Assembly: GCA_965214775.1 (NCBI GenBank)
Contig: OZ243974.1
Span: 32,001-96,000, forward strand
DNA length: 64,000 nt
DNA from: Nitrosopumilus sp.
Lineage (GTDB): Archaea > Thermoproteota > Nitrososphaeria > Nitrososphaerales > Nitrosopumilaceae
Reading direction: 5' to 3'
The notes beneath the pieces were generated by a model. That model made no database searches, was not told the origin of the DNA, and saw nothing but the letters and a program-made list of their open reading frames with translations. Shown here in pieces: positions 4,942 through 61,737 of the stretch (its first letter is position 1; every line of letters starts with the position of its first letter). The position numbers and the translations under genes were made by a program.

Positions 4942-4957
4942 GATTTTTCAACTCCAA

Positions 4958-6355: not shown

Positions 6356-6378
6356 GTATAATCAAATTGCAAAGCGGG

Positions 6379-7779: not shown

Positions 7780-7818
7780 GAGTAAAATAACTCCGTTATA
7801 TTATAAATACATGAGGAA

Positions 7819-7850
7819 AAATAGGCATAGCTAAATAGGGAAAGCTAAAT
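7819..7850. promoter_or_regulatory. Candidate tandem operator upstream of the suf operon
   Basis: Two TAG-N6-CTA units at 14-bp period (aaaTAGgcatagCTAaaTAGggaaagCTAaat), just upstream of the sufB TATA-like box at ~7798-7807. Confidence 0.4.
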
Positions 7851-8528: not shown

Positions 8529-8873
8529 ATGTCCACAGCAACATTTGAACAATTAAAAAAGCAAGAGGCATCTAAAATCAGAGAAGCGGCAAAAAAAATA
8601 CAAGCTGCAAAGACGGAATTAAAAAAACTCAAAAAGGAATCTCAAAAGAAAATAAAGACTGCCAAAGTGGCAGAGCAAAAGCGGCGTAAGGAAGAAAAAA
8701 TCAGAGCAAAAGAAACGGCAAAAAAGCAGAAACTAGAAAAAAAGAACAAGATCAAACTGGCAAAAAAGCAGATGAGAGAGGCAAAGACCGCGGCAAAAAA
8801 AGAGGCAAAGACAAAAATCAAAAATGCAAAAAGAGTCCTAAAAGAAACCAAAAAGGGCAAGAAAAAGAACTGA
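8529..8873 (+). CDS. Small lysine-rich basic protein
   Basis: 114 aa, about one-third Lys; T-run terminator directly after the stop. Confidence 0.75.
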   Translation: MSTATFEQLKKQEASKIREAAKKIQAAKTELKKLKKESQKKIKTAKVAEQKRRKEEKIRAKETAKKQKLEKKNKIKLAKKQMREAKTAAKKEAKTKIKNAKRVLKETKKGKKKN

Positions 8874-9284
8874 GTTTTTTTAAACGGCATGGAAGAAAAT
8901 CCAAGGTTTTCATAAATTTCATGTCGCCTTATTTTTTCAGAAATTACGAGTCCAAATCAGAGTCAGGGATCTTTTCAACATGCCGAATAAAAATACCAGT
9001 CACGGACTTGTCACAAATATTGTAAGAGTTGTTTCGCATTCAAAACCAGGCTTGAGAAAATCGTCTGATTTTAACCCCAATGCACGCTTTGATTTTTTGG
9101 GTTTTTTTTCTCTCTCTCTCAAGACAAAAAAAGAGGTTACTTTACGTTTGATTCGTCTCCAGTAACAGCATTTCGAAGAAATCTTTTGAAATCAGAGATC
9201 AAAGACAAGACAACCTCATCAGGTTTTTTTTGGGATTTTTTCATCTCTCATCGTAATGGGTTAGCCCCTGCCTAGGCGGCAATC

Positions 9285-9375
9285 GTACGAGTTTACCCCT
9301 TAGGCTACACTGGTGTATGGAGCGTTCATGATCACGCCTGCCACGCCGTATCTCAGGTGAGGGGTAAACTCGTAC
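9285..9375. mobile_element. IS66-derived MITE (family 66a)
   Basis: TIRs GTACGAGTTTACCCCT...AGGGGTAAACTCGTAC match the ends of the IS66 at 17908-19451; inverted copy at 60273-60365. Confidence 0.85.
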
Positions 9376-9529
9376 CTATGCTGCTGCTGTGCAGGACTGC
9401 GTCTAGGAATTTCATAGTATTCATATGCCCTTTTACCTATCATTTGTCCTCCGTCAAAACAGGTCGCAGCTGTCACTGCATATCGTTTGGCCAGATCCTG
9501 TATTTTCGTCAAAAATTGATTCGGAAACA

Positions 9530-9778
9530 CTATTCGTCCAGGTCTACGTAAATTCCCGAGATTTCATTGTTGATTCTGTCCCAGTATTTTTCACAGCCAT
9601 CGGCTTTGAAGTCATTTGCTTTGCACTCATTAAAGTGAATGGTCGCATCTCTTTGCAAATTATCTGCATACAACACATCATCGGCCAAGAATATTGCAAG
9701 AATTCCAATTGCAGCCAAACTTCCTGCAACCACAATCATCGAATAGCCTACTTGCGCATGATTGTGAGGGTCCTTCAT
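9530..9778 (-). CDS. Small membrane protein, one TM helix and a Cys pair
   Basis: Hydrophobic segment YSMIVVAGSLAAIGILAIFL; TATA-like TTAAAT ~25 nt upstream. Confidence 0.75.
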   Translation of the reverse strand: MKDPHNHAQVGYSMIVVAGSLAAIGILAIFLADDVLYADNLQRDATIHFNECKANDFKADGCEKYWDRINNEISGIYVDLDE

Positions 9779-10004
9779 TTACATGCAATCCATTGTCCTT
9801 GAATTTAATCTTTTCACGAAACTGTGAAGTTAACGGGCGCTAATTCTCCTTGGGGAACATCGGGTGCAGGAGTCTGACTTTGCCGCACTCAGAATTATCG
9901 TCTTCTACTTGTTGTCCCCTTGAATCCTGATCCCTGCCCTGTAGGCAGGTGTGTCGCCGTCAAGGCCATAATGTGGGCATATGTAGTTGTGGCGGAGCTG
10001 CATT

Positions 10005-46936: not shown

Positions 46937-48492
46937 AGACTTTATGCGTAATCGACCGTGATTAAAAATTCCGTAGGCTTTTCCAAACGCAAATGCGCTG
47001 ATCGGATCAAATTACCGCATGCATCTCGTGTCATGACGCACGTAAAAGTCAGTTGCGCCAAAAGAACGTGCGCAACCATGCAGCACGGCAATGTGCCCCG
47101 CTGACAAGTCAGAAAGAATGGCGGTCCGTACCGCCGTATGTCATGTGTCTGGCAGCAGATGCAGCTGCTGCAGCAGCCGGCCGTAGTGTTTTTTCCTTTT
47201 CAACATCGTCTTGAGGTTCTCAAGACCCGTGATTATCTGCATGAAATAGTTTAGATCCTTGGCAGTTCCGCCAAACGGCATGGTAAGAATGCCATATCTT
47301 TTGAGCCGCCCTATGTGGTGCTCCACCCTGACGCGAACCCTGCTTATCTGCTTGCGGCGCCTCTTTTGCGTTGCAGTAAGATCCCCGTCCCTGGGCTTCT
47401 TTGGGGGCTGCCTGTGTATGGCGCCCGGAAGCATCTTTTGAATGCCCTCAAATCCCAGGTCGCTGTAAATCACAAACGCCTCTTCCGGATCGTCTGCGTT
47501 TTTTGCATTCCTCATTGATCCGGTGTGCCTTCCAAAGTCCGGGCCGCCCCCTGCGTTCATCACGCCCTTGTCGTTGACGCTTCCGTCCACAGTCTTGCCG
47601 CAGTGCAGTATGAGGCCGTCCAGGTTCGAGGTAATTATTGTGTTGAACATGTGCCGCTTTTTTCTTCCCGAGTATCTGGTCTTTCTTGCGGTCCTGTCCC
47701 CGGGCCTGTCTACCGGAGTCAGGGTGCCGTCAATCAGGAGCGTCTTTTTTGGGATCAGCACCTCCTCCAGCTTGCCTGCCGGGGTCTTGCAGATGATGCT
47801 TGTTAGCTTTTCGGAGGCAGGCAGGAGCCGGCGCAGTAACACGGCACCGTACCGGAGGTACCTGGACATTGTGGACTGGTCGACGTCAAATGTCGCGGCC
47901 AGATGATGCTGCGTTGCCTTGGTCCTTATGCTCATGAGTACTGCAAGCAGCGCGTGCCTGATGTACAGCTTGCACCGGTTTCCGGCATCGCCGCCTCTTA
48001 CGTCGTCCTCCCAGAACAGGGGTCTGTCCTCGTCGTCCATGACTTCTTCCGTAAAGCGCTCCAGTATGATCGTAAATGACTCCTTTGTGCATCCCGTGAC
48101 GTTGCAAAGGCGCACCGGATCGCCGATTATGCCGTCTGCAACCTCGATTGCGTGCATCCGCAGAGGCGTCCCGCCGCGCACGACTCTTTTTGTCTTGTTT
48201 TCTTCGGACTGCCACAGCGAGTCCTCAAACGCAAGCTGCTTCCTCATACGCTCGTTTTGCTTGGACATCTGTTTGTTTTGCTTGGATACCTGCTCGTGTT
48301 GCTCGACTAGCATCTCGTGTTGCTCGACTAGCATCTCGTGTTGCGCTTGTAACGCTTGAAATGCTTGGAGAGTCTTGTCATTTGAGCCCATACAGTTAGG
48401 GAATCATACAGATCTTTAGGGTTGTTGGTGTGCAAATAATGATCTATTGTGTCGTATTTTTAGATCAGATGGGCCGATTACGCATAAAGTCT
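46937..48492 (-). mobile_element. IS5-family (ISL2/Harbinger-like) element
   Basis: TIRs AGACTTTATGCGTAATCG; 3-bp TSD AGT. Confidence 0.92.
47141..48391 (-). CDS. IS5-like DDE transposase
   Basis: HTH LAATFDVDQSTMSR; LIDGT, YSGRKKRH, SDLGFEG and RVRVEHHIGRLK motifs. Confidence 0.93.
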   Translation of the reverse strand: MGSNDKTLQAFQALQAQHEMLVEQHEMLVEQHEQVSKQNKQMSKQNERMRKQLAFEDSLWQSEENKTKRVVRGGTPLRMHAIEVADGIIGDPVRLCNVTGCTKESFTIILERFTEEVMDDEDRPLFWEDDVRGGDAGNRCKLYIRHALLAVLMSIRTKATQHHLAATFDVDQSTMSRYLRYGAVLLRRLLPASEKLTSIICKTPAGKLEEVLIPKKTLLIDGTLTPVDRPGDRTARKTRYSGRKKRHMFNTIITSNLDGLILHCGKTVDGSVNDKGVMNAGGGPDFGRHTGSMRNAKNADDPEEAFVIYSDLGFEGIQKMLPGAIHRQPPKKPRDGDLTATQKRRRKQISRVRVRVEHHIGRLKRYGILTMPFGGTAKDLNYFMQIITGLENLKTMLKRKKHYGRLLQQLHLLPDT

Positions 48493-48619
48493 AGTGGGCA
48501 TCCCTGCCTTCAGTTACCCCCTCAATAAAGGCAGAAAAAATCTTTGTAAATCCAATATGACAGGCACAGACTATCAGTCTTTGCAGACATGCGTCACGGC
48601 AGCACCAAAGGAGCGGTTT

Positions 48620-48870
48620 GTAGGAGTCAAGCGTCGATTCAAAGTTGGCAGATTTGGATCATGCATAAACTAACTTGCACCAAACAGATCAATTCCTGTA
48701 AAACGCATGTTGTCTGTGAGATTATAGTAATGAGCAGAAATAATCAAGGTTTTTTACGTGTAGTTATGACCTGTTTTGACTCAAAGACTTCTGCCCGCTG
48801 CTATACTTTACAAACGTATCAAAAAAACCGGGTATTTTTTGCACGGTCTCCAATTTCGGATCACCTCTGC
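48620..48870. mobile_element. MITE family C, long degenerate copy
   Basis: Shares TGTTTTGACTCAAAGACTTCTGCCCG with 50886-51109 and has the right TIR AATTTCGGATCACCTCT. Confidence 0.6.
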
Positions 48871-49121
48871 AGTATATGGGACAAACGCCGCAGCTCGTGC
48901 GCCCGGCACAGTCGGCACTTGTCCCCGGATCGAGTCACCATCACCGTCACCATCACTACTCCCCGCCTCCTCATTCTCCTCACCCTCACCCTCACCCTCA
49001 CCCTCATCCTCCACTCCGCCACCCAAGCACAACATCTGTCTGAGGCGACAAAAGACAAGCAGCCTCGCACTAGCAGTAGCCATGTTAAATGTTAATATGT
49101 AAACGCCAAACCACATCAGTC

Positions 49122-49538
49122 ATGGATATGAATAAAATTCTCGTGCCCGTGGATGGTTCAAAAAAGTCCTTTGAGGCCCTGGATCGCGCACTGACCCTGG
49201 CTGGATTCACCCACGGCCAGGTTACTGCAATACATATAATCCCACACGTTCTTGCAGGCGGCTCTAGAACCAAAGACTTTGACAGGAACGTTCGTCAGGA
49301 TGCCGAAATCATTCTAAAAAAGGCAGAAAAAAGGGCAGGAAACAAGGATGTAAAATTCAAAACCAAGATTCTAAGGGGATCCCCCGGATACGAGGCAGTG
49401 GCCCTGGCCAGAAAGGGACATTTTGATCACATTGTAATGAGTACGACCGGCAGTGGCTCTGCCACCGGAGACATGCTGGGAAGCGTCTCTAACTTTATAC
49501 TGCACAAATCAAAAATCCCGGTATACCTTATCAAGTAA
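49122..49538 (+). CDS. Universal stress protein
   Basis: KILVPVDGS and LGSVSNFILHKSKIPVYLIK motifs. Confidence 0.93.
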   Translation: MDMNKILVPVDGSKKSFEALDRALTLAGFTHGQVTAIHIIPHVLAGGSRTKDFDRNVRQDAEIILKKAEKRAGNKDVKFKTKILRGSPGYEAVALARKGHFDHIVMSTTGSGSATGDMLGSVSNFILHKSKIPVYLIK

Positions 49539-49556
49539 CCAAGGAATGGAAAAGAA

Positions 49557-50408
49557 ATGACAGAAATCTCCTCTCTAATGAACGGGCCAGTAACAATAGA
49601 AGGCGGGGCGTCGCTTTCAAACGCCATAACCAGACTGCTGAGCAGGCAGATCAGCCGCTTGCTTGTAACTGAGGACGGCTCCCACGCAGGCATCATCACC
49701 GAAAAGGACATCGGAGGCTTCCTACTGAACGATGATTCTGAGAAAAACCTGGATGACATTCCGGTTTCAAAGATAATGAAAAAAACTGTCTTGGTTCCTG
49801 CCTCCTCTACTGTCCCGGAATGTGCAAAAACCATGCTGGAAAAAAACATCGGATCCCTGGGAGTATCTGCAGACAACAGGCAGGTAGCCGGAATAGTGAC
49901 AAAGACCGATCTTGTGCGCCATTATGCAGAAAATTATTCTGGCAGGCACAGAGTAGGCGACGTAATGACGGCCTCTTACATACGGCAAAATTCCAGTGAC
50001 TCCCTAAAGAACGTCGTATCTGCCATGGTTGAAAACAGGATATCTAGGATTTTCATACAGAACAACGGCAGCATCGAGGGAATCATCACGTTTCGTGACT
50101 TGTTCAACATCGCACTAGAGCAGGGTAACACCGATTCTGTGTTGGATGACTCTGATCCTGCAATATCCGTAGTCTTTACACGGAAAGGGTTTCTTTCGGA
50201 ATCCGGCTTTGGCAGCACCATGCGTGCAAGTGACGTCATGACCAGAAACGTAGAATCCGTCGGTTTTGAAGTGGATCTGGCAGCTGCATGCAAGGCCATG
50301 ATCCGGGAAAAAATTAATGGCATGGGAGTCATAATAGAAGGCAAGTTGGGCGGAACGGTGAGCAAAACCGACGTGTTAAAGGCAATCTACATGGACGGCA
50401 GCTTCTGA
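49557..50408 (+). CDS. CBS-domain protein (four CBS repeats)
   Basis: GIITEKDI, GIVTKTDL, GIITFRDL and GTVSKTDV repeats. Confidence 0.92.
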   Translation: MTEISSLMNGPVTIEGGASLSNAITRLLSRQISRLLVTEDGSHAGIITEKDIGGFLLNDDSEKNLDDIPVSKIMKKTVLVPASSTVPECAKTMLEKNIGSLGVSADNRQVAGIVTKTDLVRHYAENYSGRHRVGDVMTASYIRQNSSDSLKNVVSAMVENRISRIFIQNNGSIEGIITFRDLFNIALEQGNTDSVLDDSDPAISVVFTRKGFLSESGFGSTMRASDVMTRNVESVGFEVDLAAACKAMIREKINGMGVIIEGKLGGTVSKTDVLKAIYMDGSF

Positions 50409-50518
50409 TAGATGAGACCTGCGTTTGATCACTTGTCAGATACGGATTTTTTTCATGCATGGCAAAATTTGAAAGGGTTCCTCCCGGCGGCCCTGCAAGC
50501 TTGTAAGGGGGTTGGATG

Positions 50519-50736
50519 GGGATTGTTTCCTAATTTGCCAGAATTCCTGAAAACCGCTGGGATGCCACATGGATCAGGCGTGCAAAAGGGCGAAAATTCA
50601 GAAAAACATGCAGACAGAGTCAGGCAGGTGTAGTGCGTGCAGTTGAAAATGGAATGTTTTTTTGGCAAAACAGGCACGATGTGTCAAAATCATATTCCAT
50701 TTTTTGATGTTGGCACTGGGATTAGGAAACAACCCC
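50519..50736. mobile_element. MITE family B containing a nested family A MITE (50631-50718)
   Basis: B termini with flanks ggttggatg / ggctggatg; A element inserted just before the right TIR. Confidence 0.82.
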
Positions 50737-50885
50737 GGCTGGATGAGGCCATCCCAACTGCAAGAGCCGCCGGCGCAGGAATTACAGGATGTTGCTCTTT
50801 TCACCTTCCAAAACTGACAGGCACCGTATTCAAGGGTGGCCGGATTCGTGACGATGCAGTAGGTGACGTGCGGGAGCTGCAGGCC

Positions 50886-51109
50886 CCTGAGAGATGATTC
50901 GAAATCAAAAGCCGTACGAATTTTTCAGGTGACTTTACAAACACAGCAACGCTCACAATTAATCGAGGTCTTTCACGGGCAATCTGACCATGTTTTGACT
51001 CAAAGACTTCTGCCCGTTGCCATAACTTGCATTTTGTTGGTGTTTTGAGCCGTTTCATGCAAATTCGTTCACAAATAATGAGTTTGCCGATTTCGAATCA
51101 TCTCTCAGG
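50886..51109. mobile_element. MITE family C, long form
   Basis: TIRs CCTGAGAGATGATTCGAAATC...GATTTCGAATCATCTCTCAGG. Confidence 0.85.
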
Positions 51110-51139
51110 TTGTATGTTTTTCAACTGCTCCAATCATCA

Positions 51140-52111
51140 TCAGCGGAAAAATGTTACTGCCAAGTAGGCCACGTAGCCTATTGCCATACATGCGCCCGTG
51201 GCACGTCCTATCATTCCTCCCGTCTTTATTGCAATCAAGATGGACATTCCAAACAGAATCATGATTGTATAATCCACATAGACATCAGCAGAGATCACCA
51301 CTCCTCCCAACACTGCACCGACTCCCATGATCATCAAAACGTTGTAGATATTGCTTCCGATGATGTTTCCAATTCCGATGTCGGTGTGGCCTTTTCGAAT
51401 GGCCATGATTGACGTGATTAATTCAGGAAGGGAAGTTCCGATTGCAATCACGGTAAGGCCGATAATTTTTTCAGACAGGCCGAATTCTTTTGCCAAAACC
51501 ACCGCATTGTCCACAGTCAAAAATGCGCCAACGTAAAGAAAGCCCATTCCAAGTCCAATCAAACCAATCGATTTTAGGTAAAGATTGTTTTTTTCAGGCG
51601 CGGACGGCTCGTCTTCAGGTTTGCTCTCTCGCCGTCTCATTGCATGTCTGAAAGTGTAAGCAGCAAAGACTCCCAGCCCTGCAAGGAGTAAGAATCCGTC
51701 ATATTGGGTCAGATGACCGTCAACAGAAATTGCAACAAGCAGCAAAGAGACTCCCAGCATTATAGGAATCTCTTTTCTTAGAACGGATTTTTGGACTGCA
51801 AGCGGGGCCAAAATGGCTGCAATTCCAATCACCATTCCGACATTTGCAATGTTGCTGCCCACAATATTTCCCAAGATAATTGCACTATGCTCGCCTGCAG
51901 CAGCTATGCTTGCTGCAAGCTCCGGAGTTGATGTGCCATATGCCACTATGGTCATGCCGATTACCAGATTGCTGATTCTGAATCTTCTTGCAATTGATGC
52001 ACCACCGCCAACCAGCCAGTTGCCTCCAAAGCACAGCATTGCCAATCCGACTGCCGTCAGGGCAGCACTTGCTGCTATTGCCGATACTGCTGCTGCTGGT
52101 TCCACAAGCAA
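51140..52111 (-). CDS. Calcium/sodium antiporter (CaCA, YrbG-like)
   Basis: Two alpha-repeats: GTSTPEL...GNIVGSNIAN and GTSLPEL...GNIIGSNIYN. Confidence 0.93.
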   Translation of the reverse strand: MLVEPAAAVSAIAASAALTAVGLAMLCFGGNWLVGGGASIARRFRISNLVIGMTIVAYGTSTPELAASIAAAGEHSAIILGNIVGSNIANVGMVIGIAAILAPLAVQKSVLRKEIPIMLGVSLLLVAISVDGHLTQYDGFLLLAGLGVFAAYTFRHAMRRRESKPEDEPSAPEKNNLYLKSIGLIGLGMGFLYVGAFLTVDNAVVLAKEFGLSEKIIGLTVIAIGTSLPELITSIMAIRKGHTDIGIGNIIGSNIYNVLMIMGVGAVLGGVVISADVYVDYTIMILFGMSILIAIKTGGMIGRATGACMAIGYVAYLAVTFFR

Positions 52112-52297
52112 ATTTGAGAGATTGCCAGTTTAAAGGAGACGATATGCTATAATTTCACAATTATGACAAGTCAAGCTCATTTGGAGCCGGGTTTCAGGCA
52201 CAAGACCGACAGGTGATTTCCACCAAACTGTCTTGTTGTGATTCTTCTGAGGAATAAAATGAACGGGTAAAATCAGCGACTTTTAACCAGTCAGAAT

Positions 52298-52376
52298 GGA
52301 TCTTGTGCGTATTTGCCAAAAATGACGTAAAAACTGCCTGATTTTTTTTTTGATCTGTGCCGATTACGCAAAGTCT
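52298..52376. mobile_element. IS5-derived MITE
   Basis: Right end CGATTACGCAAAGTCT resembles the IS5 TIR; AAT duplicated on both sides; homolog at 60262-60442. Confidence 0.8.
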
Positions 52377-52641
52377 AATGGGTTGCGTGCTAATGAAGAA
52401 TAGTTTGCCAGAGCTCGTTTATCAGAATGGCAATCAATGATTATGTCATGTTCGGCAGCAGGGGGTTTTTCAGGAGCGATCTTGCATGTTAAATTTGCGC
52501 AAAATTCCCGTTTTTGCAAGGCATGACGGCAAACAGATGTTTTAATGTCATCGCCCAAAAACAGTGTTGGTTCCACGCCGTCTTTTTGCCCTCTTTTGCC
52601 ATTATTTGCAACACCTGCAAAACAGACATCAGAATCCAAAT

Positions 52642-53955
52642 CTAAGACTTCTTCTTCTTTCTAAAGATTTCATCGCTTTCTTGAAGGTCGTCTGTGTACT
52701 CGTCCATGTCAAGCATGAACTCTTCCTCCTCGGAGTACGCCGACTCGGCATGCTCGCTGATATCCAATCCCATATCCTCGACTTCCGGCGAGACCCTGAT
52801 TCCGATCAGGTGTTTGATCACCTGCATCAGAATCCACGTTCCCCCAAACCCAATTGCGGCAGCCACACCGACGCCGACGGCCTGGATCCACAGCTGGTCA
52901 GGATTGCCAAACAAAAGGCCGTCAACGCCATCAGAATTAATCATGGTGCTTGCAAATATGCCGATTGCAAGAGAGCCTACAATTCCGGCAACGCCGTGGA
53001 CGGAGCTGACATCAAGTGCATCATCAATCCTTAGCTTCTCTTTGAACAATACAACACCAGAGTATGAGATTACGCCTATTGCAATTCCGATAACAAATGC
53101 GTGTTCGGCACTGACAAACCCAGATGCGGGGGTAATTCCGGCAAGTCCGGCAATTGCGCCGTTGATTGTTGCAACAACAGACGGCTTTCCGGTCCTTATC
53201 CACGAGAGTCCCGCCCAGATCAGGGCAGAGACAGACGAGGCCATATGAGTGACAATTACGGTGTTGCCTGCAACGCCGCCGGATGCTGCCAAGGCACTTC
53301 CGGCGTTAAAGCCAAACCAGCCCAGCCAGAGCAGGGAAGAGCCAAGCACTGCAAGCGGTATGCTGTGAGGAATCATTATGGCAGGGCCATAGTTTCTTCT
53401 TCTGCCCAATACAAGTGCGGCTGCCAACGCGGACATGCCGACGCTGGTGTGAATGACTATGCCGCCGGCAAAGTCCACCACTCCCATTTGGGCCAACCAG
53501 CCACCGCCCCATACCCAGTGTACGAGCGGATAGTAGATCAGGATGGACCATGCAGATATGAATATGATAAAGGAGCTGAACTTCATCCTTTCGGCAATGG
53601 TTCCTGTGAGAAGCAGCGGAGTAATGCACGCAAACATCAACTGGAATTTTACAAACAACACCCCGGGAATTGTCGGGGCAAAGTCCAGGGAATCATCAGA
53701 GGGAACGCCCTTGAGAAATGTCCATCGCATGTCTCCAACCAAGCCGTGTTCTGAAGGGCTAAACGACAGGCTAAATCCAAAGACAAACCACATCACGCTA
53801 AGCAATGCCAGGCCAAAGAAGATCTGCATGAAGATTGATGCGGCGTTCTTTTTTCGCAAAAGTCCTGATTCAAAGAGGCCCAATGCAGGGATCATTAGCA
53901 GCACAAGGCTTCCGGCAACCAGCATCCATGCTGTATCCCCGGAATCAAGAACCAT
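52642..53955 (-). CDS. amt: Ammonium transporter (Amt family)
   Basis: DSGDTAW, FQLMFA, DFAGGIVIH, WLGWFGFNAGS and DDALDVSSVHG motifs. Confidence 0.97.
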   Translation of the reverse strand: MVLDSGDTAWMLVAGSLVLLMIPALGLFESGLLRKKNAASIFMQIFFGLALLSVMWFVFGFSLSFSPSEHGLVGDMRWTFLKGVPSDDSLDFAPTIPGVLFVKFQLMFACITPLLLTGTIAERMKFSSFIIFISAWSILIYYPLVHWVWGGGWLAQMGVVDFAGGIVIHTSVGMSALAAALVLGRRRNYGPAIMIPHSIPLAVLGSSLLWLGWFGFNAGSALAASGGVAGNTVIVTHMASSVSALIWAGLSWIRTGKPSVVATINGAIAGLAGITPASGFVSAEHAFVIGIAIGVISYSGVVLFKEKLRIDDALDVSSVHGVAGIVGSLAIGIFASTMINSDGVDGLLFGNPDQLWIQAVGVGVAAAIGFGGTWILMQVIKHLIGIRVSPEVEDMGLDISEHAESAYSEEEEFMLDMDEYTDDLQESDEIFRKKKKS

Positions 53956-54072
53956 TGAAAAAAACAGATCATCCCAAATTAATAATGGTGACTGAATTTG
54001 ATTAGCAAATGACCACCATTTGAACATCAAAATCAGAAATTATATTTGTAAAGGGGATACAGTGAAAATCAA

Positions 54073-54402
54073 ATGTTAAAGTTCGAAGTAATTCTTGGCA
54101 ACAACGATGTCATGTCAATTAGCGAGGCATTAAAGAATATAGGAATAGGCGGCCTCACAGTATCAAAAGTAAGAGGAAGGGGCAGAAATCCAGGTCCGGA
54201 GATTCACGCCTCAAAAGGCAGTGAGATTTTTGTCCCTCAATTCAGCGACAAATACAAGATGGAGGCAATTGTTTCTGAAGAAAAAGAGGACAAGGTGATT
54301 TCAATCATAAAGGAAAACGGAAGGGTGGGGAAGATCTTTGTTTCACAGATTTTACGTGCAGTAGACATCGCAACAGGACGCGAAGGCGACGAGACAATCT
54401 AA
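54073..54402 (+). CDS. PII-family nitrogen regulatory protein
   Basis: GLTVSKVRGRG and GKIFVS motifs; divergent from amt. Confidence 0.92.
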   Translation: MLKFEVILGNNDVMSISEALKNIGIGGLTVSKVRGRGRNPGPEIHASKGSEIFVPQFSDKYKMEAIVSEEKEDKVISIIKENGRVGKIFVSQILRAVDIATGREGDETI

Positions 54403-54562
54403 GGAAGAGGAATGGGAGGCATCACATCACCATCATCATGAACCTGCGAAAAAGCAAACTGTTTCACAGAGAAAAGATGCAGCCCATCAGGCCCAGAGAT
54501 TACCCAAAAATCGCCGCGATTTGCGCAATAACTGTTATACCGCCCGTTCTCCTGCTTTTGTT

Positions 54563-54658
54563 ATGAAAGTTTCCAAAATATCAATTGCCAAATTGATTAT
54601 GGCTGCAGTCGGCCTGACATTGGTTGGAGTGTGGTTGTTTTCAGATTATCTTTTCTAG
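54563..54658 (+). CDS. Putative 31-aa single-TM peptide (not in the ORF track)
   Basis: MKVSKISIAKLIMAAVGLTLVGVWLFSDYLF*; TTATA-like element ~25 nt upstream. Confidence 0.5.
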   Translation: MKVSKISIAKLIMAAVGLTLVGVWLFSDYLF

Positions 54659-54667
54659 AGATTAGAG

Positions 54668-54760
54668 GTACGAGGTCACCTACCATCATCAGTTAGGCAT
54701 GAATTAGCATGAATGATTGTGATCCTTGTGCCTAGCTAGCAAGGGGACGTGACCACATAC
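54668..54760. mobile_element. IS66-type MITE (family 66c)
   Basis: GTA...TAC termini; exact 8-bp TSD GATTAGAG at 54660-54667 and 54761-54768. Confidence 0.8.
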
Positions 54761-54762
54761 GA

Positions 54763-55353
54763 TTAGAGATATTCGCCAAAGTTGTTTTCATAAACGACTG
54801 TGGGACTCTTCAGCTGCTTTTCCAAAGTCGGAATTGATTTCATTATGCAGTAATTTACAAAATCACTAAACGACTTTATCCTGTAGTCACTTTTCAGGAT
54901 CTCTTTGTTTTTTTCATAAATTACCTGCAGTTTGTGCAGTGTGAATTTTTGCAGCGGAACAAATCTGCTTCTTTTTGGCAACGGTTTTGAATCAAGTTTT
55001 TCCTCAGAATCAATCTCAAGATCTTGATCTACATCAAGAGTTCCCATATCGACTACCTCTTCCACTTCAGAGACAAAGATTTTGCCACCGTGTGCAAAAG
55101 TCAGTCCCGAATTTTCAGAGACCGTCTTCACTACCTGTCTTGCATCTTTGTCAGGAACCACCATCTCAATTTTTGCAAGTGGAATGAATTTGATGCCTGT
55201 CGAGCCTGTCTTTGAGCCTTTTAATCCCTCATAGATATGGCCATCATCAAGATTTCGCTTGTCAATGATGTAAGTGCCAACCTTGTTTAGTTTCATTTTA
55301 ATGGCAGGAAAATTTTTTCGTTTGATGACTGCCTCTATCTTCTTCACAAGCAT
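54763..55353 (-). CDS. Degenerate PII domain fused to a ribbon-helix-helix-like C-terminal domain
   Basis: KKIEAVIK, KIEMVV and GGKIFVSEVEEVV (PII), acidic linker, then RFVPLQKFTLHKLQ...SFSDFVNYCI. Confidence 0.8.
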   Translation of the reverse strand: MLVKKIEAVIKRKNFPAIKMKLNKVGTYIIDKRNLDDGHIYEGLKGSKTGSTGIKFIPLAKIEMVVPDKDARQVVKTVSENSGLTFAHGGKIFVSEVEEVVDMGTLDVDQDLEIDSEEKLDSKPLPKRSRFVPLQKFTLHKLQVIYEKNKEILKSDYRIKSFSDFVNYCIMKSIPTLEKQLKSPTVVYENNFGEYL

Positions 55354-55390
55354 TTTCCAAGGAACGTCTTATTTATGCCGTGGTTTTGTC

Positions 55391-55519
55391 GGGGTTGTCG
55401 CCTAATTCCACTTGTTTGGCTCAATCTGCACGTTTTTCTGAATTTCCGCCATTTTTCACGCCTGATCCACTGACATCTCAGCGGTTTTCAGGAATTCTAA
55501 TGAATTAGGCGACAACCCC
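55391..55519. mobile_element. MITE family B copy
   Basis: Perfect 18-bp TIRs; flanks ggttttgtc / gattttgtc. Confidence 0.88.
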
Positions 55520-55643
55520 GATTTTGTCATCAAAACCAGGAGGACATCTGGCAGTACTTTACAAAGGCTGCAGGCGCAAGCAGGTGTAAAAAAACCACCC
55601 AAAGGGATCAACAAAGCTCAAGTTAAAGATTAATAAGGTAAAG

Positions 55644-55660
55644 TACCGTACCATACGGTA
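55644..55660. promoter_or_regulatory. Palindromic operator candidate TACCGTA-N3-TACGGTA
   Basis: Perfect 7-3-7 inverted repeat between the TATA-like TTAATAA (~55630) and the ATG of the wHTH gene. Confidence 0.55.
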
Positions 55661-55662
55661 TC

Positions 55663-56010
55663 ATGATACGAGCAAGACTGACATATGTGCCGCTTGAAGT
55701 GGCCGAGCAATTCGAAGATTTCATAATAAAAAGAGACGAGCAGGTTCTAGATGCAGTAAAAGCAAGGACAAAAGACTATAGCACCTTGTCATTGTTGAAA
55801 CTGTTGTATCAGCTCAAAGGAAATCCAATGACGTTTTCAGAACTGTATTCAAAATCAAAGATCAGGATGAAGAAGTCATTTCTAAACTATCTTCATTTGT
55901 GTGTAAATTACAACTTTGTGCAAAAAGAAGCAGTTGGACCCAATATGATCTATTCGATTACAGACAAGGGACGTACTATGCTGAGTCTCTTTATGCAGAA
56001 GAACAGCTGA
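55663..56010 (+). CDS. Winged-helix transcriptional regulator
   Basis: MTFSELYSKS...FLNYLHLC...YSITDKGR pattern. Confidence 0.85.
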   Translation: MIRARLTYVPLEVAEQFEDFIIKRDEQVLDAVKARTKDYSTLSLLKLLYQLKGNPMTFSELYSKSKIRMKKSFLNYLHLCVNYNFVQKEAVGPNMIYSITDKGRTMLSLFMQKNS

Positions 56011-56187
56011 CAAAAAGGGTACAAAACATCTACAGCCAAGTGAAAAGTAAATGAGGTCTGTTGTTTTGCCCTGATATTCAGGCATCGTACCTTCTGCCCA
56101 TCTTCTGTTTTTGCTAGATTTTTTAGTACTTTTCACTTAGCTGATCTAGTGAATATAGTAATTAAAGAGAGCAGGCTCACGATAAAC

Positions 56188-56913
56188 GTGCAGCAAGAAT
56201 TTCCAGATGCCGAGGTATTTGAGACAAAGAAGGCAGAACTGAAGAATCCGATAATTTTTGCAGGGTTTGTAGGGGCAGGCCTAGTGGGCCCTGTTGCAAT
56301 AAACCACATCATAGAGAAGCTAGGAATGGAGGAAATTGGCGTAATGAGATCAAAGTATCTGCCGCCATCAACTGTATTTATGAGAGGCAGGCTTCGTCAT
56401 CCGTTTAGATTCTATGCAAATCAAGAGGGAACTGTTTGTGCAATAATATGCGAAATTACGTTAAGAATGGAAGGACTGTATTTGCTGGTATCTGCAATTT
56501 TAGATTGGGCAGAAGAAAAGGGCTCAAAGGAAATTGTCATTTTGGACGGAGTTGCAAGTGACGAACACGATGACAAAGCATACTGTGCAGCAGAAGAAGA
56601 TCTGGTAAGAACGATGGCAGACAAAGACATAAGCATGATTCCGCAAGGATTCATCACTGGAATTCCCGGCGGCATACTAAATGAGTGCCTAGTAAGAAAA
56701 ATCCAGGGCATGACACTGCTGGCAAAGGCAAGCAAAGTGGCCCCGGATTCAGGCGCGGCTGCCACCCTAATTGAGGCCCTAAACCGCTTCTATGAGACAG
56801 ATATTGACATCACGGAACTCCAAGAAGAAAAAGACAGAATTCATTCAGAATTCAGCGAGCTGTCTCAAAAGTACATGGAACACAGAGAAGAGATAGATGA
56901 CATGTACATGTGA
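56188..56913 (+). CDS. Proteasome assembly chaperone (PAC2) family protein
   Basis: GFVGAGLVG, ITGIPGGIL and PDSGAAATLIEAL motifs; probable GTG start. Confidence 0.9.
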   Translation: MQQEFPDAEVFETKKAELKNPIIFAGFVGAGLVGPVAINHIIEKLGMEEIGVMRSKYLPPSTVFMRGRLRHPFRFYANQEGTVCAIICEITLRMEGLYLLVSAILDWAEEKGSKEIVILDGVASDEHDDKAYCAAEEDLVRTMADKDISMIPQGFITGIPGGILNECLVRKIQGMTLLAKASKVAPDSGAAATLIEALNRFYETDIDITELQEEKDRIHSEFSELSQKYMEHREEIDDMYM

Positions 56914-56974
56914 TTGAACAGACACGCAGGCGAGCATCCAAATTCTTTTATTCAAAGCAAATACGCATCAAACT

Positions 56975-57997
56975 ATGGCCCTGACATACAAAAAAGCAGG
57001 AGTGGATATTTCAAAGATCAAGCAGAGTCAGCTGGCAATCGGAAAACTGATTACATCAACTCACAAAATTCAGAAAAAAGCAAAGATTGCACATGGTTTT
57101 GGACATTATGCCGGAATAGTAGAGATTCCAGGAGGAAAACTTTTGGCAACACATGCAGACGGAGTTGGAACCAAAGTAGTAATTGCAAACATGATGAAAA
57201 AATACAGTACGATAGGAATTGACTGTGTCGCAATGAATGTAAACGACATTATTTGTATCGGGGCAACGCCAATATCATTTGTAGATTATATTGCAGCAAA
57301 CAAAAACGATCAACGGATTTTCAAAAGAATTGTAGGGGGGCTGGTGGCAGGCGCAAAAAAATCAGCAGTGCCGATTGTGGGAGGAGAGACTGCAATAATG
57401 CCCGATGTGATTGAGGGAAAGGGATTTGCATTTGACTTGGCAGGAATGGTTGTAGGGCTAGTTGAAAAGAAAAAGATTGTGCTAGGAGATAAGATCAGGC
57501 CAGGAGACGTAATCATCGGTGCAGAAAGTACAGGAATGCATTCAAACGGGTATTCATTGGCAAGAAAGGCAATACTTGGAAGATATTCTCTCAAGGACAA
57601 AGCAAAGGGAGTAGGCAGGATTGGAGATGCGTTGCTAAAGCCAACCCAAATCTACACAAGTCCAGTTTTAGAAATAACTGACAAATGCAAAGTAAATGGT
57701 TTGGCACACATTACAGGCGGGGCATTTACCAAACTTTTACGCCTAAAAAAGACGGGATACGAGATAGACTCACTGCCAAAAATCCCGCCAATAATGGGCC
57801 TTGTAGAAGAGCAGGGGGTAAAGCCAGAAGAGATGTACAAGACATTTAACATGGGCATAGGATTCTGTGTTGTGGCACCAAAAGATCAAGCGGTACGCAT
57901 CAAGACAATTTTCAAAAGACACAAGATAGCAAGCCAGGAGATAGGGCAGATCATATCCAAAAAGGGCGTTTTTGTAAACTCTGCAAAGATAGCCTGA
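56975..57997 (+). CDS. purM: Phosphoribosylformylglycinamidine cyclo-ligase
   Basis: YKKAGVDI, DGVGTK, GGETAIMP, HSNGYSL, AHITGG and TFNMGIG motifs. Confidence 0.97.
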   Translation: MALTYKKAGVDISKIKQSQLAIGKLITSTHKIQKKAKIAHGFGHYAGIVEIPGGKLLATHADGVGTKVVIANMMKKYSTIGIDCVAMNVNDIICIGATPISFVDYIAANKNDQRIFKRIVGGLVAGAKKSAVPIVGGETAIMPDVIEGKGFAFDLAGMVVGLVEKKKIVLGDKIRPGDVIIGAESTGMHSNGYSLARKAILGRYSLKDKAKGVGRIGDALLKPTQIYTSPVLEITDKCKVNGLAHITGGAFTKLLRLKKTGYEIDSLPKIPPIMGLVEEQGVKPEEMYKTFNMGIGFCVVAPKDQAVRIKTIFKRHKIASQEIGQIISKKGVFVNSAKIA

Positions 57998-58079
57998 CGG
58001 CATTAAAGAAGAGATCACACTATGAGCAAAAACAGTTTGCCAGTCAAGCTTGGAATGACAGCAACGTTGTCATAATGTG

Positions 58080-58211
58080 GGGGTTGTCTCCTAATTCCCC
58101 GGAATTCCTGAAAGCTGTTGGGATGCCACATGGATCAGGCGTGCAAGATGACGAAAATTCAGAAAAACATGCAGGTTGAGTCACAGGCAGATGGAATTAG
58201 GAAACAACCCC
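58080..58211. mobile_element. MITE family B copy, abutted by a truncated 66b MITE (58213-58312) and a 66c MITE (~58305-58400)
   Basis: TIRs and internal homology to the other copies of each family. Confidence 0.8.
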
Positions 58212-58400
58212 GGTAAGAGTATAAAGCGATGGAATACCTAGTGAATGCGTCTGACTGAACAACGCACACTCGCAGCGTCTCGTGCAGGGAACCAGAATAA
58301 TTTGATATGGGAAGTCACGTCCCTTGCTGGCCAAGCATGGAAATCATAATTGTACATACCAATTCGCGTCTGATTGGTGGGGGGGTGGGCGACCACATAC

Positions 58401-58515
58401 CTTCAAAGTCTTCAAAGTCTTCAAAGTCTTCAAAATATACAAAACAGGGCCTTCAGGTGCCAAAAGTCTTCAAAGTCTTCAAAGTCTTCAAAATATACAA
58501 AACAGGGCCTTCAGG
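58401..58515. repeat. Two direct repeats of ~57 bp, each containing three AAAGTCTTC 9-mers
   Basis: Seen directly; related inverted copy at ~17030-17078. Confidence 0.85.
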
Positions 58516-58701
58516 CCCGCCCGATACGTGATGTTCAAGACATTTGCGGTGGGATCTGGGTTGGTTTCAGGTTTCCCTCCGGGGGCCTGATGTGCATCTA
58601 TGTGTCGTGTTTATAGGGATTCCACGCGTAACGGTGTTGTGAGGGTAACAGGATGGCCTCTGCCTAGGTTAATTTTTTGCAATCCTTTGATCCACTGGTT
58701 G

Positions 58702-58865
58702 GTATGGGGTCGTATCTCTCTCTTGCTGGCCCGGCGTGAAGACCGTGCATACTGATGCAACCATAGATACGGTATGGGGTCGTATCTCTCTCTTGCTGGC
58801 CCGGCGTGAAGACCACATCTCCGTGCAATTCGTGCCTAACTAGTCAGGGGGAAGCAAACTTGTAC
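58702..58865. mobile_element. IS66-type 66c MITE with duplicated left end (44-bp direct repeats at 58701 and 58771)
   Basis: GTATGGGGTC...CTTGTAC termini; flanks actggttg / actgattg. Confidence 0.65.
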
Positions 58866-58993
58866 ACTGATTGCCGCGCAATACCTAAATCAGGCGTAAC
58901 AGATCGATTATTGGAACACAAAAAGGATCAAATATGATAGCGGTACCCAAAAGTTCCAGAAGCTACTTTAGTCTCAAAGGTAATACGATAGCC

Positions 58994-59138
58994 CCTGAGA
59001 GTTGATTCAAAATTAGCAAATTCTAATTATTTGTGAACGGATTTGCATAGAACGGCTCAAAACACCAACAAAATGCAAGTTATCTGTGAAATCACTTGAA
59101 AAATTCATACGTCTTCTAATTTCGGATCACCTCTCAGG
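58994..59138. mobile_element. MITE family C, followed by a solo family B end and a solo IS5 end (to ~59236)
   Basis: CCTGAGAG...CTCTCAGG TIRs; 59170-59236 matches 48428-48492. Confidence 0.82.
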
Positions 59139-59264
59139 TAGGCGGAATTACGCGACAACCCCGGTTGCAGGTATGCAAATCATGATCTATTGTATTATAT
59201 TTTTAGATCAGACGGGTTAATTACGCATAAAGTTTATTTTGCCGGTGTTTTGAGCTCTTACGTT

Positions 59265-59693
59265 TTATGGATCAGTCTTTTCTATCATGTTGATCGAGTT
59301 TTTGTGTTTATAGTGTAGTACTGGCTCTCCCATATTGTTTACTCGGTCTGTGCCGTACACTTTGATCAGTTTGATTCCTATCACTATGATGAACTTTTTT
59401 GTCTCATAGATGTTGAAGGCCTTCTTAACCAGTTTAAAGGCAAGCTCGTGTGTTTCATCTGCCTTGGTTGTGGAGCCCGTACGCTCTTTTAGGCCAGATC
59501 TGTCAAAGTCCTGAGGTGCTACTACCGCTGCTACAGTTACAGCCGTTACCTTACTTTTCCCTACCTCATTTGCACCGTCCTCATTGACTATGTGGGTAAC
59601 TGTCGGCATCACCTTTATCCTCAGGCCGTTCTCAGTTTCATACTCGCTGTATTCCTGTCTTATGGTGTTGAATTCTACTGGATCGTGCTTCAT
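59265..59693 (-). CDS. Hypothetical protein with an internal two-fold repeat
   Basis: VEFNTIRQEYSEYETENG aligns with LAFKLVKKAFNIYETKKF. Confidence 0.75.
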   Translation of the reverse strand: MKHDPVEFNTIRQEYSEYETENGLRIKVMPTVTHIVNEDGANEVGKSKVTAVTVAAVVAPQDFDRSGLKERTGSTTKADETHELAFKLVKKAFNIYETKKFIIVIGIKLIKVYGTDRVNNMGEPVLHYKHKNSINMIEKTDP

Positions 59694-59911
59694 TTCAACT
59701 TCCTAATGTCGGGCTCTCCGTCTTTCTTGTAGTGAATCAACCATATCTGCTCCCTGCTCCAAAAGTGTGGCTTGTGTGGTATTTTTTTTGGGGTACATAT
59801 CTTAAAATCATCACTTCTGATTTCCGTAATCAGATGTTTTTTCTTGTTAGAGTACTCATAATTTATGTTGATTCTTGCCCCTATGCCTGCCGGCAGATCA
59901 TCTGATTACAC
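59690..59911 (-). pseudogene. Small hypothetical gene with a stop at codon 2
   Basis: GTG-TAA, then ~71 open codons ending WLIHYKKDGEPDIRKLK*; overlaps both neighbours like an operon member. Confidence 0.5.
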
Positions 59912-60219
59912 TAGTCCCTCAACTCGTAAAGATTCACACTTCCATCTTTTTTGGAAATCATATAATCCCTGCCCTGATAACTGAACGCGTAGGGCTGGCC
60001 GTCCTGCATCAACTGTTCCCTGACACGTATTGTGTCTCCCCTGACCTGTACAGGGTGGGATCCCTGGTCAGAGTCCTCAAAAAATCCGTCGCATATGAAC
60101 TCCTGCAAAGAGTCTCCGGTAGTCACACCTTCTTCAACAAACGTTGTCGCAGATCCACTAAGCACCTTGGAAATGTATGGCTTTTTTGGTTCTACGGATA
60201 CAAAATTTGGATGTGACAT
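59911..60219 (-). CDS. Hypothetical protein
   Basis: Probable start MSHPNF; TATA-like element upstream. Confidence 0.7.
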   Translation of the reverse strand: MSHPNFVSVEPKKPYISKVLSGSATTFVEEGVTTGDSLQEFICDGFFEDSDQGSHPVQVRGDTIRVREQLMQDGQPYAFSYQGRDYMISKKDGSVNLYELRD

Positions 60220-60261
60220 TTCTAGCTCTAATGGCACTGTACTGATTAAAAACTTTATCTT

Positions 60262-60442
60262 AGACTTTATGGGTAAGAGTTTACCCCTCATCTGAGATAC
60301 GGCGTGGTATAGGCGTGATCATGAAGACTCCGGCCGGTAGGGTCGCTTGAGGGATAAACTCTTGCGACTTTATGCGTATTTGTCAAAAATGACGTAAAAA
60401 CTGCCTGATTTTTTTGATCTGTACCGATTACGCATAAGGTCT
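60262..60442. mobile_element. IS5-derived MITE with an IS66 66a MITE (60273-60365) nested in its left TIR
   Basis: GACTTTATG is duplicated either side of the IS66 MITE; right end CGATTACGCATAAGGTCT. Confidence 0.82.
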
Positions 60443-60483
60443 ATCACCTTATATGACATATTTTAACAGCCATAGTAGGCAAA

Positions 60484-61737
60484 ATGGCAGCAGAGGCGCA
60501 TTTCATTGAGACAATTATCGGGGTAGGAATCCTGTTGTTTGCCGCCAAACTGATGGCAGAACTCTTCCTCAGACTGAAGCTTCCAATCGTTTTGGGCGAA
60601 TTGTTAGCAGGTATGATTGTAGGGCCATTTGCACTTGGACAGTTCTTTGTAATTGACGGAAGACACTTGTTACAAATCAACGACGAAATAAGAATTCTAG
60701 GAGAGATGGGGGCAATTGTAATTTTGTTTATGGCAGGATTGGAAATGACTCCAAAAGAATTTCTCAAGGGAGGAAAGGCATCATTTACAGTCGGAACCCT
60801 AGGAGTGGTGATTCCGTTTTTTGCAGGACTTGGTGTGTTTGGCATATTTGGATTTGAGGCATTAGAATCAATGTTAATTGCTACAGCGCTGACGGCTACA
60901 AGTATAGCGATTTCAATTCAAGTGTTAAACGAATTTGGAAAAATCAAGACACCTGAGGCCAGATTGATTATCGGGGCAGCAGTGGTAGACGACATTTTAG
61001 CAATTGCAGTATTATCAGTTGTAATTTCAATTACAGGCTCAGATGCAGGAATTGAAAGTATTGAAATCACAGATGTCACGATTACAATTCTCCAAGTTCT
61101 CGGATTCTTTGCAGTCATGCTGATTGTTGCAGTCATAGTCATACCCAGAGTCATCACCACACGTTTGTGGAAGGCAAAAGGCAGTGTAGAGGGAATTGCA
61201 ACTGCGGCGTTCTTTGGGGCAGCCGCACTAGCAGGATCAATTGGACTATCGCCGATTGTCGGTGCATTTGCAGTTGGAATGGCACTGTCAACTACCAAAG
61301 TCTTTGAGAAGGTAGAGAATTTCATAGAAAAGATCGGTCTGATATTTGCGCCGTTATTCTTTGCAATAATTGGGGCACAGGTAGATCTTAGGGCAGTAGA
61401 CATTAACATTCTGATGTTAAGCGGGGCAGTGATTGCAGTAGCTGTTGCAACCAAACTCTTTGGATGCGGATTGCCAGCAATGCTGTTCTTGAAAAACAAG
61501 GCTCAAGGACTGAGAGTGGGAATCGGAATGATTTCCAGAGGAGAGGTAGGGTTGATTGTAGCAGGGGTAGGAGTTACAGCAGGGGTTCTGACCTCCGAGG
61601 TATATTCTACAATTGTCATCATGGTGGCAGTGACTACCATTATCACGCCAATATGGCTGAAGATGGAATACAGAAAAGAACAGCAGAGAGAAGGAGGCAA
61701 TGCGCCAAGTGAAGAAATACAGCAAAAACCAGAATAG
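60484..61737 (+). CDS. Cation:proton antiporter (CPA2, KefB/NapA-like)
   Basis: LFMAGLE, TATSIAI, AAVVDDI and MISRGEVGLI motifs. Confidence 0.93.
   Translation: MAAEAHFIETIIGVGILLFAAKLMAELFLRLKLPIVLGELLAGMIVGPFALGQFFVIDGRHLLQINDEIRILGEMGAIVILFMAGLEMTPKEFLKGGKASFTVGTLGVVIPFFAGLGVFGIFGFEALESMLIATALTATSIAISIQVLNEFGKIKTPEARLIIGAAVVDDILAIAVLSVVISITGSDAGIESIEITDVTITILQVLGFFAVMLIVAVIVIPRVITTRLWKAKGSVEGIATAAFFGAAALAGSIGLSPIVGAFAVGMALSTTKVFEKVENFIEKIGLIFAPLFFAIIGAQVDLRAVDINILMLSGAVIAVAVATKLFGCGLPAMLFLKNKAQGLRVGIGMISRGEVGLIVAGVGVTAGVLTSEVYSTIVIMVAVTTIITPIWLKMEYRKEQQREGGNAPSEEIQQKPE

Follow-up and report, generated by a model that had tools for sequence, protein, structure and literature searches.

A PII Domain Fused to a Conserved Basic Tail Beside an Ammonium Transporter Gene of Nitrosopumilus: A Candidate One-Component Regulator and a Candidate Operator

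Genes and Features of the Locus

We analyzed a stretch of 64,000 nucleotides from a Nitrosopumilus sp. genome (contig OZ243974.1, positions 32,001 to 96,000 of the forward strand), which is called the window hereafter; all coordinates refer to it unless another locus is named. The locus comprises an ammonium transporter gene (amt), a short PII gene, and a gene encoding a PII domain that continues through a linker into a basic tail, which we call the PII-tail gene (Table 1). The first-pass annotation had placed the PII-tail gene beside amt and a second PII gene, and this was confirmed by the Pfam matches of both neighbors and by the synteny described below.

Table 1. Coordinates of the genes and features at the locus (window positions).
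Feature	Position	Strand	Basis or description
PII-tail gene	54763..55353	-	196-aa open reading frame, frame intact
PII domain, aa 3-103	55045..55347	-	Pfam match, alignment with 3ncp and 7p4v, AlphaFold model
Acidic linker, aa 104-124	54982..55044	-	Homolog alignment; pLDDT 36-42
Conserved basic tail, aa 125-196; candidate DNA-binding, RHH-like module	54766..54981	-	Conservation, AlphaFold model
Ammonium transporter gene	52642..53955 (ORF finder: 52642..54030)	-	PF00909, E 4e-114
Short PII gene, 109 aa	54073..54402	+	PF00543, E 1.3e-15; divergent from amt, convergent with the PII-tail gene
Candidate operator, three 9-bp units, 11-bp period (TGATTAGCAAATGACCACCATTTGAACATCA)	53999..54029	.	Eroded version of the TGATWATCA array of relatives
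TATA-like TTATATTT	54040..54047	+	26-33 nt upstream of the short-PII start codon; position beside the array conserved; putative
A+T-rich TATA-like element, amt side of the array	53976..53988	-	Conserved alignment columns; putative

Transporter homologs open at MxxDSGDTAW, which corresponds to the ATG at 53955. We therefore take this ATG to be the true amt start and the TTG at 54030 given by the ORF finder to be over-extended, so that the divergent amt/PII spacer is 117 bp long (53956-54072). The transporter is probably the "Amt1" of the literature, a type absent from many relatives, and its C-terminus carries a strongly acidic stretch. The homologs of the PII-tail protein open at (M/V/L)KKIEA; thus, judging from their alignment, its true start may be the GTG at 55347 and not the ATG at 55353. 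An ATAAATA(A/G) box lies at 55368-55375, 15-25 nt upstream of the PII-tail start codon. The box was seen in 11 of 21 loci, and its recurrence suggests that the PII-tail gene is transcribed from a promoter of its own, as a nearly leaderless transcript.

In the window genome, PII domains occur in five genes, and there are two copies of amt. The short PII is nearer to canonical PII than the fused protein and keeps more of the canonical residues; the fused PII domain and the short PII share 33% identity over 45 residues. We compared 20 loci and found that the order amt (leftward), PII (rightward), PII-tail (leftward) was kept in 14 of them. The tail gene lay tail-to-tail with a short PII gene in 19, including those of a genus in which the PII paralog is a different one and amt is elsewhere. 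Only amt, the short PII gene and the PII-tail gene were conserved around the array, and no other candidate DNA-binding gene was syntenic across genera in these 20 loci.

Some further observations were made around the locus. A 115-aa protein with weak winged-helix matches is encoded at 55663-56010 on the forward strand, divergent from the PII-tail gene, and was found in the window's own genus only. An ACCGTA...TACGGT inverted repeat is conserved in the same-genus loci, in the spacer 55354-55662 by the start of this 115-aa gene. A tandem repeat at 58401-58515 has a 9-nt unit, CTTCAAAGT, in about 10 copies, as well as a perfect 58-nt period in 1.9 copies, and encodes repetitive KSS/FKV peptides in several frames. 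No Rfam family matched in 48000-61000.

Two loci of other genomes depart from this picture. At about 6400-9000 of locus L032 (genome G038, same genus), amt1, the short PII gene and the PII-tail gene each fall into two tblastn pieces, as if frameshifted, and the flanking genes (PurM, PAC2, winged-helix and Ca/cation-antiporter genes) are whole. Either the module is decaying as a whole, or the assembly contains indels here. At L029 (contig 70 of genome G091, 3932-6520), a divergent PII-tail paralog with the strand motif KRNRMVSLQQ is convergent with a 604-aa ORF, which from its translation alone looks like a nitrite/sulfite reductase. No amt, short PII gene or TGATWATCA array was found near this paralog.

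The PII Domain Is Recognizable and Degenerate

The open reading frame contains every string that the first-pass annotation had quoted from it (KKIEAVIK, KIEMVV, GKIFVS, VVDMGT, SRFVPLQ, KFTLHKLQVIYEK and SFSDFVNYCIMK). The build that the annotation had proposed, with a PII domain, a flexible acidic linker and a conserved basic tail, was borne out by the Pfam match and by the variable linker and conserved tail of 33 homologs. The Pfam P-II family (PF00543) matched aa 4-101 with an E-value of 6.3e-11 (43 bits against a cut-off of 25). Solved PII proteins were aligned to aa 3-107 with a best E-value of 9.4e-08, and 37 of them were matched at E up to 10.

In the AlphaFold model, the PII part has strands at 3-11, 29-35, 59-67 and 92-97, helices at 12-25 and 68-81, and a low-confidence loop at 44-51. 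The model thus predicts the ferredoxin-like PII fold, a doubled beta-alpha-beta unit in which strands 2 and 3 are joined by a T-loop. One member of the family, P0134 (153 aa), lacks the T-loop wholly.

The effector-binding positions are different. In the alignment with 3ncp, a solved archaeal PII, the T-loop base reads LDDGHI against KGRGQQ, LPKVK corresponds to IPLAK, and the C-terminal VVRIRTGE corresponds to VVDMGTLD, while the B-loop GKIF is retained. The missing GxGxQ T-loop base and C-loop RxR had been pointed out in the first reading, correctly. In E. coli GlnB numbering, we take the canonical contacts for ATP/ADP and 2-oxoglutarate to be R38, Q39, K58, K90, R101 and R103. Only the GKIF lysine is kept in the PII-tail protein, the others being H, I, L, D and G in the alignment with 3ncp and 7p4v; L59 is nearly invariant in the 33 homologs. 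Because the replaced positions, R38/Q39, K58 and R101/R103, are presumably those that contact 2-oxoglutarate and the phosphates of ATP, the fused PII domain is, on the evidence of the alignment, unlikely to bind the canonical effectors.

Conservation and Distribution of the Tail

The tail is the best-conserved part of the PII-tail protein, above the PII part, in the 33 homologs. Seven of the nine invariant columns of the family lie in it (R130, L134, T138, Y146, I159, F165 and C169), and its core motif is KRSR(L/F)VPLQKxTL ... YRIKSFSDFVNxCI. The linker varies in both length and sequence across the same homologs, with insertions of up to about 40 residues. The tail is basic, with 14 K/R against 8 D/E in 77 aa.

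We searched for the tail alone (aa 105-196) in 121 family genomes. It turned up in 30 of them, spread over 8 of 27 genera, and the open frames that carry it were almost always about 190-230 aa long. The PII-tail arrangement is more than chance, since the intact frame is conserved in these 30 genomes and conservation within the protein is highest in the tail.

The first-pass annotation had supposed that homologs may be common in ammonia-oxidizing archaea, and they are: 1259 near-length homologs were found, those listed being 189-197 aa long. All named homologs among the 120 listed of these 1259 belong to Nitrosopumilus, Nitrosarchaeum or Thaumarchaeota, that is, to marine ammonia oxidizers. Their database names are generic, either "P-II family nitrogen regulator" or "transcriptional regulator".

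No family of Pfam or NCBIfam covers aa 105-196. When the tail was compared with 1.84 billion cluster representatives, there were 14 matches at E ≤ 0.001, all of them members of the PII-tail family or fragments. With the tail profile, the near-length class gave 113 proteins, which were fragments of the PII-tail family only; in the longer class, PF00543 was present in all 120 matches listed of 1391. Since only the PII-tail family was matched among the representatives and only PII fusions among the matches listed, the tail is, as far as these searches reach, a lineage-specific domain known in one architecture among the matches listed.

Fold of the Tail

The tail had been described in the first reading as resembling a ribbon-helix-helix (RHH) domain. 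In the AlphaFold model of the whole protein (mean pLDDT 73.6, pTM 0.44), the linker is disordered, and the tail consists of an extended basic segment, KRSRFVPLQ, followed by helices at 133-148, 150-156 and 162-182 (pLDDT 83-93), with the first tail helix, 133-156, kinked. The same elements were predicted when the tail was modelled alone (pLDDT 81, pTM 0.60); across the two models, the pLDDT of these elements ranges over 83-96. A strand was not predicted in the monomer model of the tail, in which the segment is extended only; the polar/hydrophobic alternation of the putative strand, R-S-R-F/L-V-P, is not clean, and the first helix exceeds that of typical RHH domains by about 10 residues.

Sequence and profile comparisons gave nothing significant. 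There was no RHH family among the Pfam matches of 26 tail sequences at E up to 10, and the tail profile had no match among PDB sequences. In a scan of 41 family genomes with PF01402, the tail was never matched; the sole match was a NikR-like protein of about 137 aa, present in 37 of the 41 genomes. The hhalign probability of the tail profile was 0.2% against 23 NikR-type RHH_1 N-termini and 0.7% against a more inclusive set, 26 RHH_1 domains of the phylum. In the latter comparison, the register was the one that RHH helix B would have, with SFSDFVNYCI facing the RSE-I-R-A helix, but P was 0.076.

Structural comparisons were similar. A Foldseek search of the PDB with the tail gave six matches up to E 10, of which none reached E ≤ 0.001. 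The second and fourth of these were the RHH centromere binder ParB of pCXC100 (E 4.9 and 8.2), the better of the two, 3no7, being the best RHH entry; all are at noise level. With VIA-align, 548 of 48,161 chains reached Z ≥ 2 and none reached Z ≥ 5, the best being 3.9. Six RHH entries were found at Z 2.9-3.6, within the noise band: ParB 3no7, TraM 3on0 and 3omy, Rv0298 8u12, TacA1 7zg6 and ParD2 7b22. Unrelated helical hairpins, e.g., Tim8-Tim13 and the PKA docking domain, were found at the same Z as these RHH entries.

The only positive pointer to RHH came from a protein-language-model atlas, whose neighbors are leads and not proof by the calibration of the atlas itself. The nearest named neighbors of the window tail were the Met repressor (11 matches), ParB_C, DUF3950 and RHH_1, at 0.91-0.94; those of a family member 27% identical to it were DUF3950, ParB_C, Tra_M, RHH_1 and RHH_6, at 0.84-0.87. 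RHH thus stays a candidate fold for the tail. The extended basic segment and the two helices are present in the AlphaFold model, while nothing significant was obtained from Pfam, PDB sequences, hhalign, Foldseek or VIA-align. The modelled fold is compatible with RHH.

A Candidate Operator in the amt/PII Spacer

The stretch 53956-54072 had been proposed for binding tests, and a conserved operator-like array was found inside it. In relatives, TGATWATCA, a 9-bp palindrome, occurs two or three times in the amt/PII spacer with a period of exactly 11 bp. From the end of this array to the PII start codon there are 40-45 nt, and a TATA-like box follows the array immediately; a further A+T-rich box is located toward amt. 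The units of the window array have 1, 3 and 2 mismatches to TGATWATCA, and 43-44 nt separate the window array from either of the divergent start codons. The relaxed triple pattern TGA-N4-CA is unique to this array in the 2.83-Mb genome. The exact palindrome is not enriched in the window genome (33 found against 28.5 expected), and no tandem pairs of it were found there. The window genome, at 2.83 Mb and 47% G+C, is larger than the same-genus genomes of the sample (1.4-1.9 Mb), and its A+T-rich operator is eroded.

Variants of the array were noted at other loci. At L023 (G084), a changed basic segment, TRNRLVSLQ, occurs together with a variant array, TGTTATACA-N2-TGACATACA, in the amt/PII spacer; as a single case, this is possibly co-variation of the protein and its putative site. 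At L022 (G086, 5800-10000), two PII-tail paralogs flank an amt-PII operon whose amt is 46% identical to that of the window, and a perfect TGATAATCA-N2-TGATTATCA pair lies 55-75 nt upstream of each tail paralog.

Intergenic tandem copies of the motif also occur at L070/L071 (genus g4) around 3250 and at L080 (contig 17 of G086) around 3282. One of these copies is just downstream of another 115-aa PII-like gene, and one is about 40 nt upstream of a gene for a 78-aa small ligand-domain-like protein next to a glnA-like gene. These copies may mark extra members of a regulon. Most other sites that recurred in the genomes fall within coding genes, one of them transketolase-like and the other about 335 aa in length, and were discounted as coding conservation.

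Association between the Array and the Tail Gene

We explored whether the array goes with the tail gene. The tandem TGATWATCA pair (≤ 2 mismatches) was present in the amt/PII spacer of 17 of 19 loci from tail-bearing genomes, the two exceptions being the window and L023. In genomes without a detected tail, the pair was absent from 10 of 10 orthologous spacers, even at ≤ 4 mismatches; a similar pair, spaced 13 bp, occurs in one genus where no tail was detected. At the genome level, 55 of the 121 genomes matched the pair pattern (≤ 2 mismatches), among them all 29 other tail-bearing ones, and the reversed control matched 11 of 121. Five genomes of a single genus have the tail gene away from amt, beside another PII paralog; in these five too, the amt/PII spacer is the best genome-wide match to the pair (0-1 mismatch).

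The transporter was compared in the same way. The Amt type of the window (E ≤ 1e-120) was found in 38 of 120 other genomes, including 28 of the 29 tail-bearing ones. Same-genus genomes without the tail miss this type altogether, one of them keeping broken pieces only.

A maximum likelihood tree of 30 Amt sequences left out the loci without Amt and L032, in which Amt is split, and took in L022 and L150, which are long-branch paralogs. The tail-less rows of this tree form two groups divided by well-supported branches, one of them nested within the tail-bearing clade, and the array is missing from both. At least two changes are needed among the Amt orthologs, and the array tracks the gene in both. 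Co-distribution thus supports a link between gene and array, short of proof, as the comparison of sequences amounts to about two transitions among related genomes.

A Proposed Mechanism and Its Alternatives

The first-pass annotation had offered two readings, a one-component regulator and a pseudo-PII that forms heterotrimers with its neighbor. We regard it as an even call whether the PII-tail protein is a one-component PII transcription regulator of the amt1 module. The support for this was observed: the domain build, the conservation, the restricted architecture, the synteny, and an operator-like array that is co-distributed with the gene. DNA binding, an RHH dimer, the signal sensed and the direction of regulation are what we infer for the PII-tail protein.

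The N-terminal PII domain would serve for oligomerization and perhaps for sensing, its canonical ATP/2-oxoglutarate contacts having been lost. The flexible acidic linker would tether the basic tail, and tails would pair, most likely as an RHH-like dimer that binds DNA. Each dimer would take one palindrome, with adjacent dimers aligned along one face of the DNA. RHH dimers use sites of this type, in which a 9-bp palindrome is read in one major groove and recurs with each helical turn. The target would be the array of TGATWATCA palindromes, two or three in number and one helical turn apart, that lies between the amt1 and short-PII TATA boxes; in some lineages, an array upstream of the PII-tail gene itself would be a target as well. 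Because the array is upstream of both TATA boxes, its occupancy would affect both divergent genes, and it would set the transcription of the low-affinity-type ammonium transporter module by nitrogen status. This status may be read by the fused PII domain, or via the neighboring canonical-like PII; the short PII, which keeps more canonical residues, may supply the signal. In its fullest form, with PII trimers acting as the transcription factor and their three flexible tails pairing in RHH-like fashion within or between trimers on the one-turn-spaced palindromes between the amt1 and PII TATA boxes, the mechanism is tentative, and we would put its chance somewhat below even.

The association with the transporter may be explained differently. 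The protein could be a post-translational regulator of the GlnK type, whose tail is a protein-binding or oligomerization hairpin that docks on Amt1, the short PII or an enzyme and tunes ammonium uptake directly. The presence of an Amt1-type transporter in 28 of the 29 tail-bearing genomes would be expected from this, as would the lack of the tail gene in same-genus genomes without Amt1 and the apparent joint frameshifting of all three genes in one same-genus genome (L032). Hairpins such as Tim8-Tim13 and the PKA docking domain resemble the tail at the same Z as RHH entries do, and the acidic C-terminus of Amt1 could meet the basic tail. However, docking leaves unexplained the palindrome array and its absence from the tail-less amt/PII loci, the array upstream of the tail genes in some genomes, and the RHH-type neighbors in the language-model atlas, and the tail gene persists away from amt in one genus. 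We consider docking unlikely.

The pseudo-PII reading, in which the PII-tail protein enters heterotrimers with the short PII and its tail gives the mixed trimer a new output on DNA or elsewhere, is compatible with the one-component regulator and not opposed to it. It agrees with the tail-to-tail arrangement of the two genes in 19 of 20 loci, although this adjacency may reflect an origin by tandem duplication, and with the loss of effector contacts from the fused domain when the neighbor keeps more of them. The two PII domains are, however, only 33% identical over 45 residues, the T-loop is missing from P0134, and the array and its co-distribution with the gene are left unexplained. We think it rather improbable.

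Finally, the array could belong to an unrelated transcription factor, with another role for the tail, e.g., in RNA binding or membrane association; this seems to us very improbable. In its favor, the evidence that links tail and array is indirect, a similar pair at 13-bp spacing occurs in a genus without a detected tail, and the window array is eroded while its tail is intact. Against it, only amt, the short PII gene and the PII-tail gene are conserved around the array, and no other DNA-binding candidate is syntenic across genera, the 115-aa winged-helix-like gene being limited to the window's genus.

Comparison with Known Systems

The PII-tail protein, read as a one-component regulator, can be set beside several known systems. 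It shares with canonical GlnB/GlnK and with GlnK-AmtB the Pfam PII domain, the predicted fold with its T-loop, and the linkage of amt and PII. It differs from canonical PII in an extra conserved domain of about 72 aa beyond the flexible linker and in having H/I, L and D/G at the R38/Q39, K58 and R101/R103 positions. Canonical PII affects transcription only via separate partner proteins. In PipX-NtcA, TnrA-GlnK and AmtR-GlnK, nitrogen status is passed from PII to the promoters of uptake genes, as is proposed here; however, the DNA-binding proteins of those systems are separate, whereas in the PII-tail protein the candidate output domain is in the same chain.

NikR resembles the proposal in that a small beta-alpha-beta sensor and a small dimeric DNA-binding module are joined in one chain, and its oligomer sets how many operator half-sites are read. 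Unlike the PII-tail protein, NikR has the reverse domain order and an ACT-like tetramerization domain in place of PII, which belongs to a trimer-forming family; its RHH domain has no sequence-profile similarity to the tail by hhalign.

The RHH repressors MetJ, Arc and CopG and the plasmid centromere binders of the ParB/ParG type are similar to the tail in size, in the basic N-terminal segment and in the two helices. Among RHH repressors, the nearest language-model clusters are Met repressor, ParB_C, RHH_1 and Tra_M, and the weak structural matches are to ParB of pCXC100, TraM and RHH antitoxins. These repressors bind tandem short repeats, and the candidate operator likewise consists of short palindromes, one per helical turn. 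Against these likenesses, the tail has no significant sequence, profile or fold match to RHH repressors, its first helix is longer and kinked, and the strand is not predicted in the monomer.

What is new here is the fused output domain together with the proposed operator; the PII part is an ordinary member of its family with degenerate ligand sites. No PII protein fused to a DNA-binding domain was found in the literature, judged by titles, and the first reading had likewise known of no characterized example. Table S4 of PMC7490402 and Table S7 of PMC11812461, which give PII gene sets, may already list the gene.

Biological Implications

Marine ammonia-oxidizing archaea carry out much of the nitrification in the ocean. 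We know of no transcription factor for nitrogen uptake in them, and to our knowledge the regulator of their amt genes is unnamed. One study reports that the low-affinity amt is depressed when ammonia is low and that deep-sea lineages do not have it (PMC7490402), and another reports that sponge symbionts lack both amt1 and the extra PII genes (PMC11812461). These observations fit a dispensable and regulated amt1 module.

A protein and a DNA site are put forward here as a pair, each of a length suited to direct binding tests. If this is true, the PII-tail protein would be an ammonium-responsive switch of the low-affinity transporter module in marine ammonia-oxidizing archaea, and the first nitrogen regulator with a defined operator in these globally abundant organisms. 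It would also represent a mode of PII output not previously described, with sensor and DNA reader in one chain. The unit of amt1, PII and PII-tail could then mark ammonium-responsive lifestyles in metagenomes.
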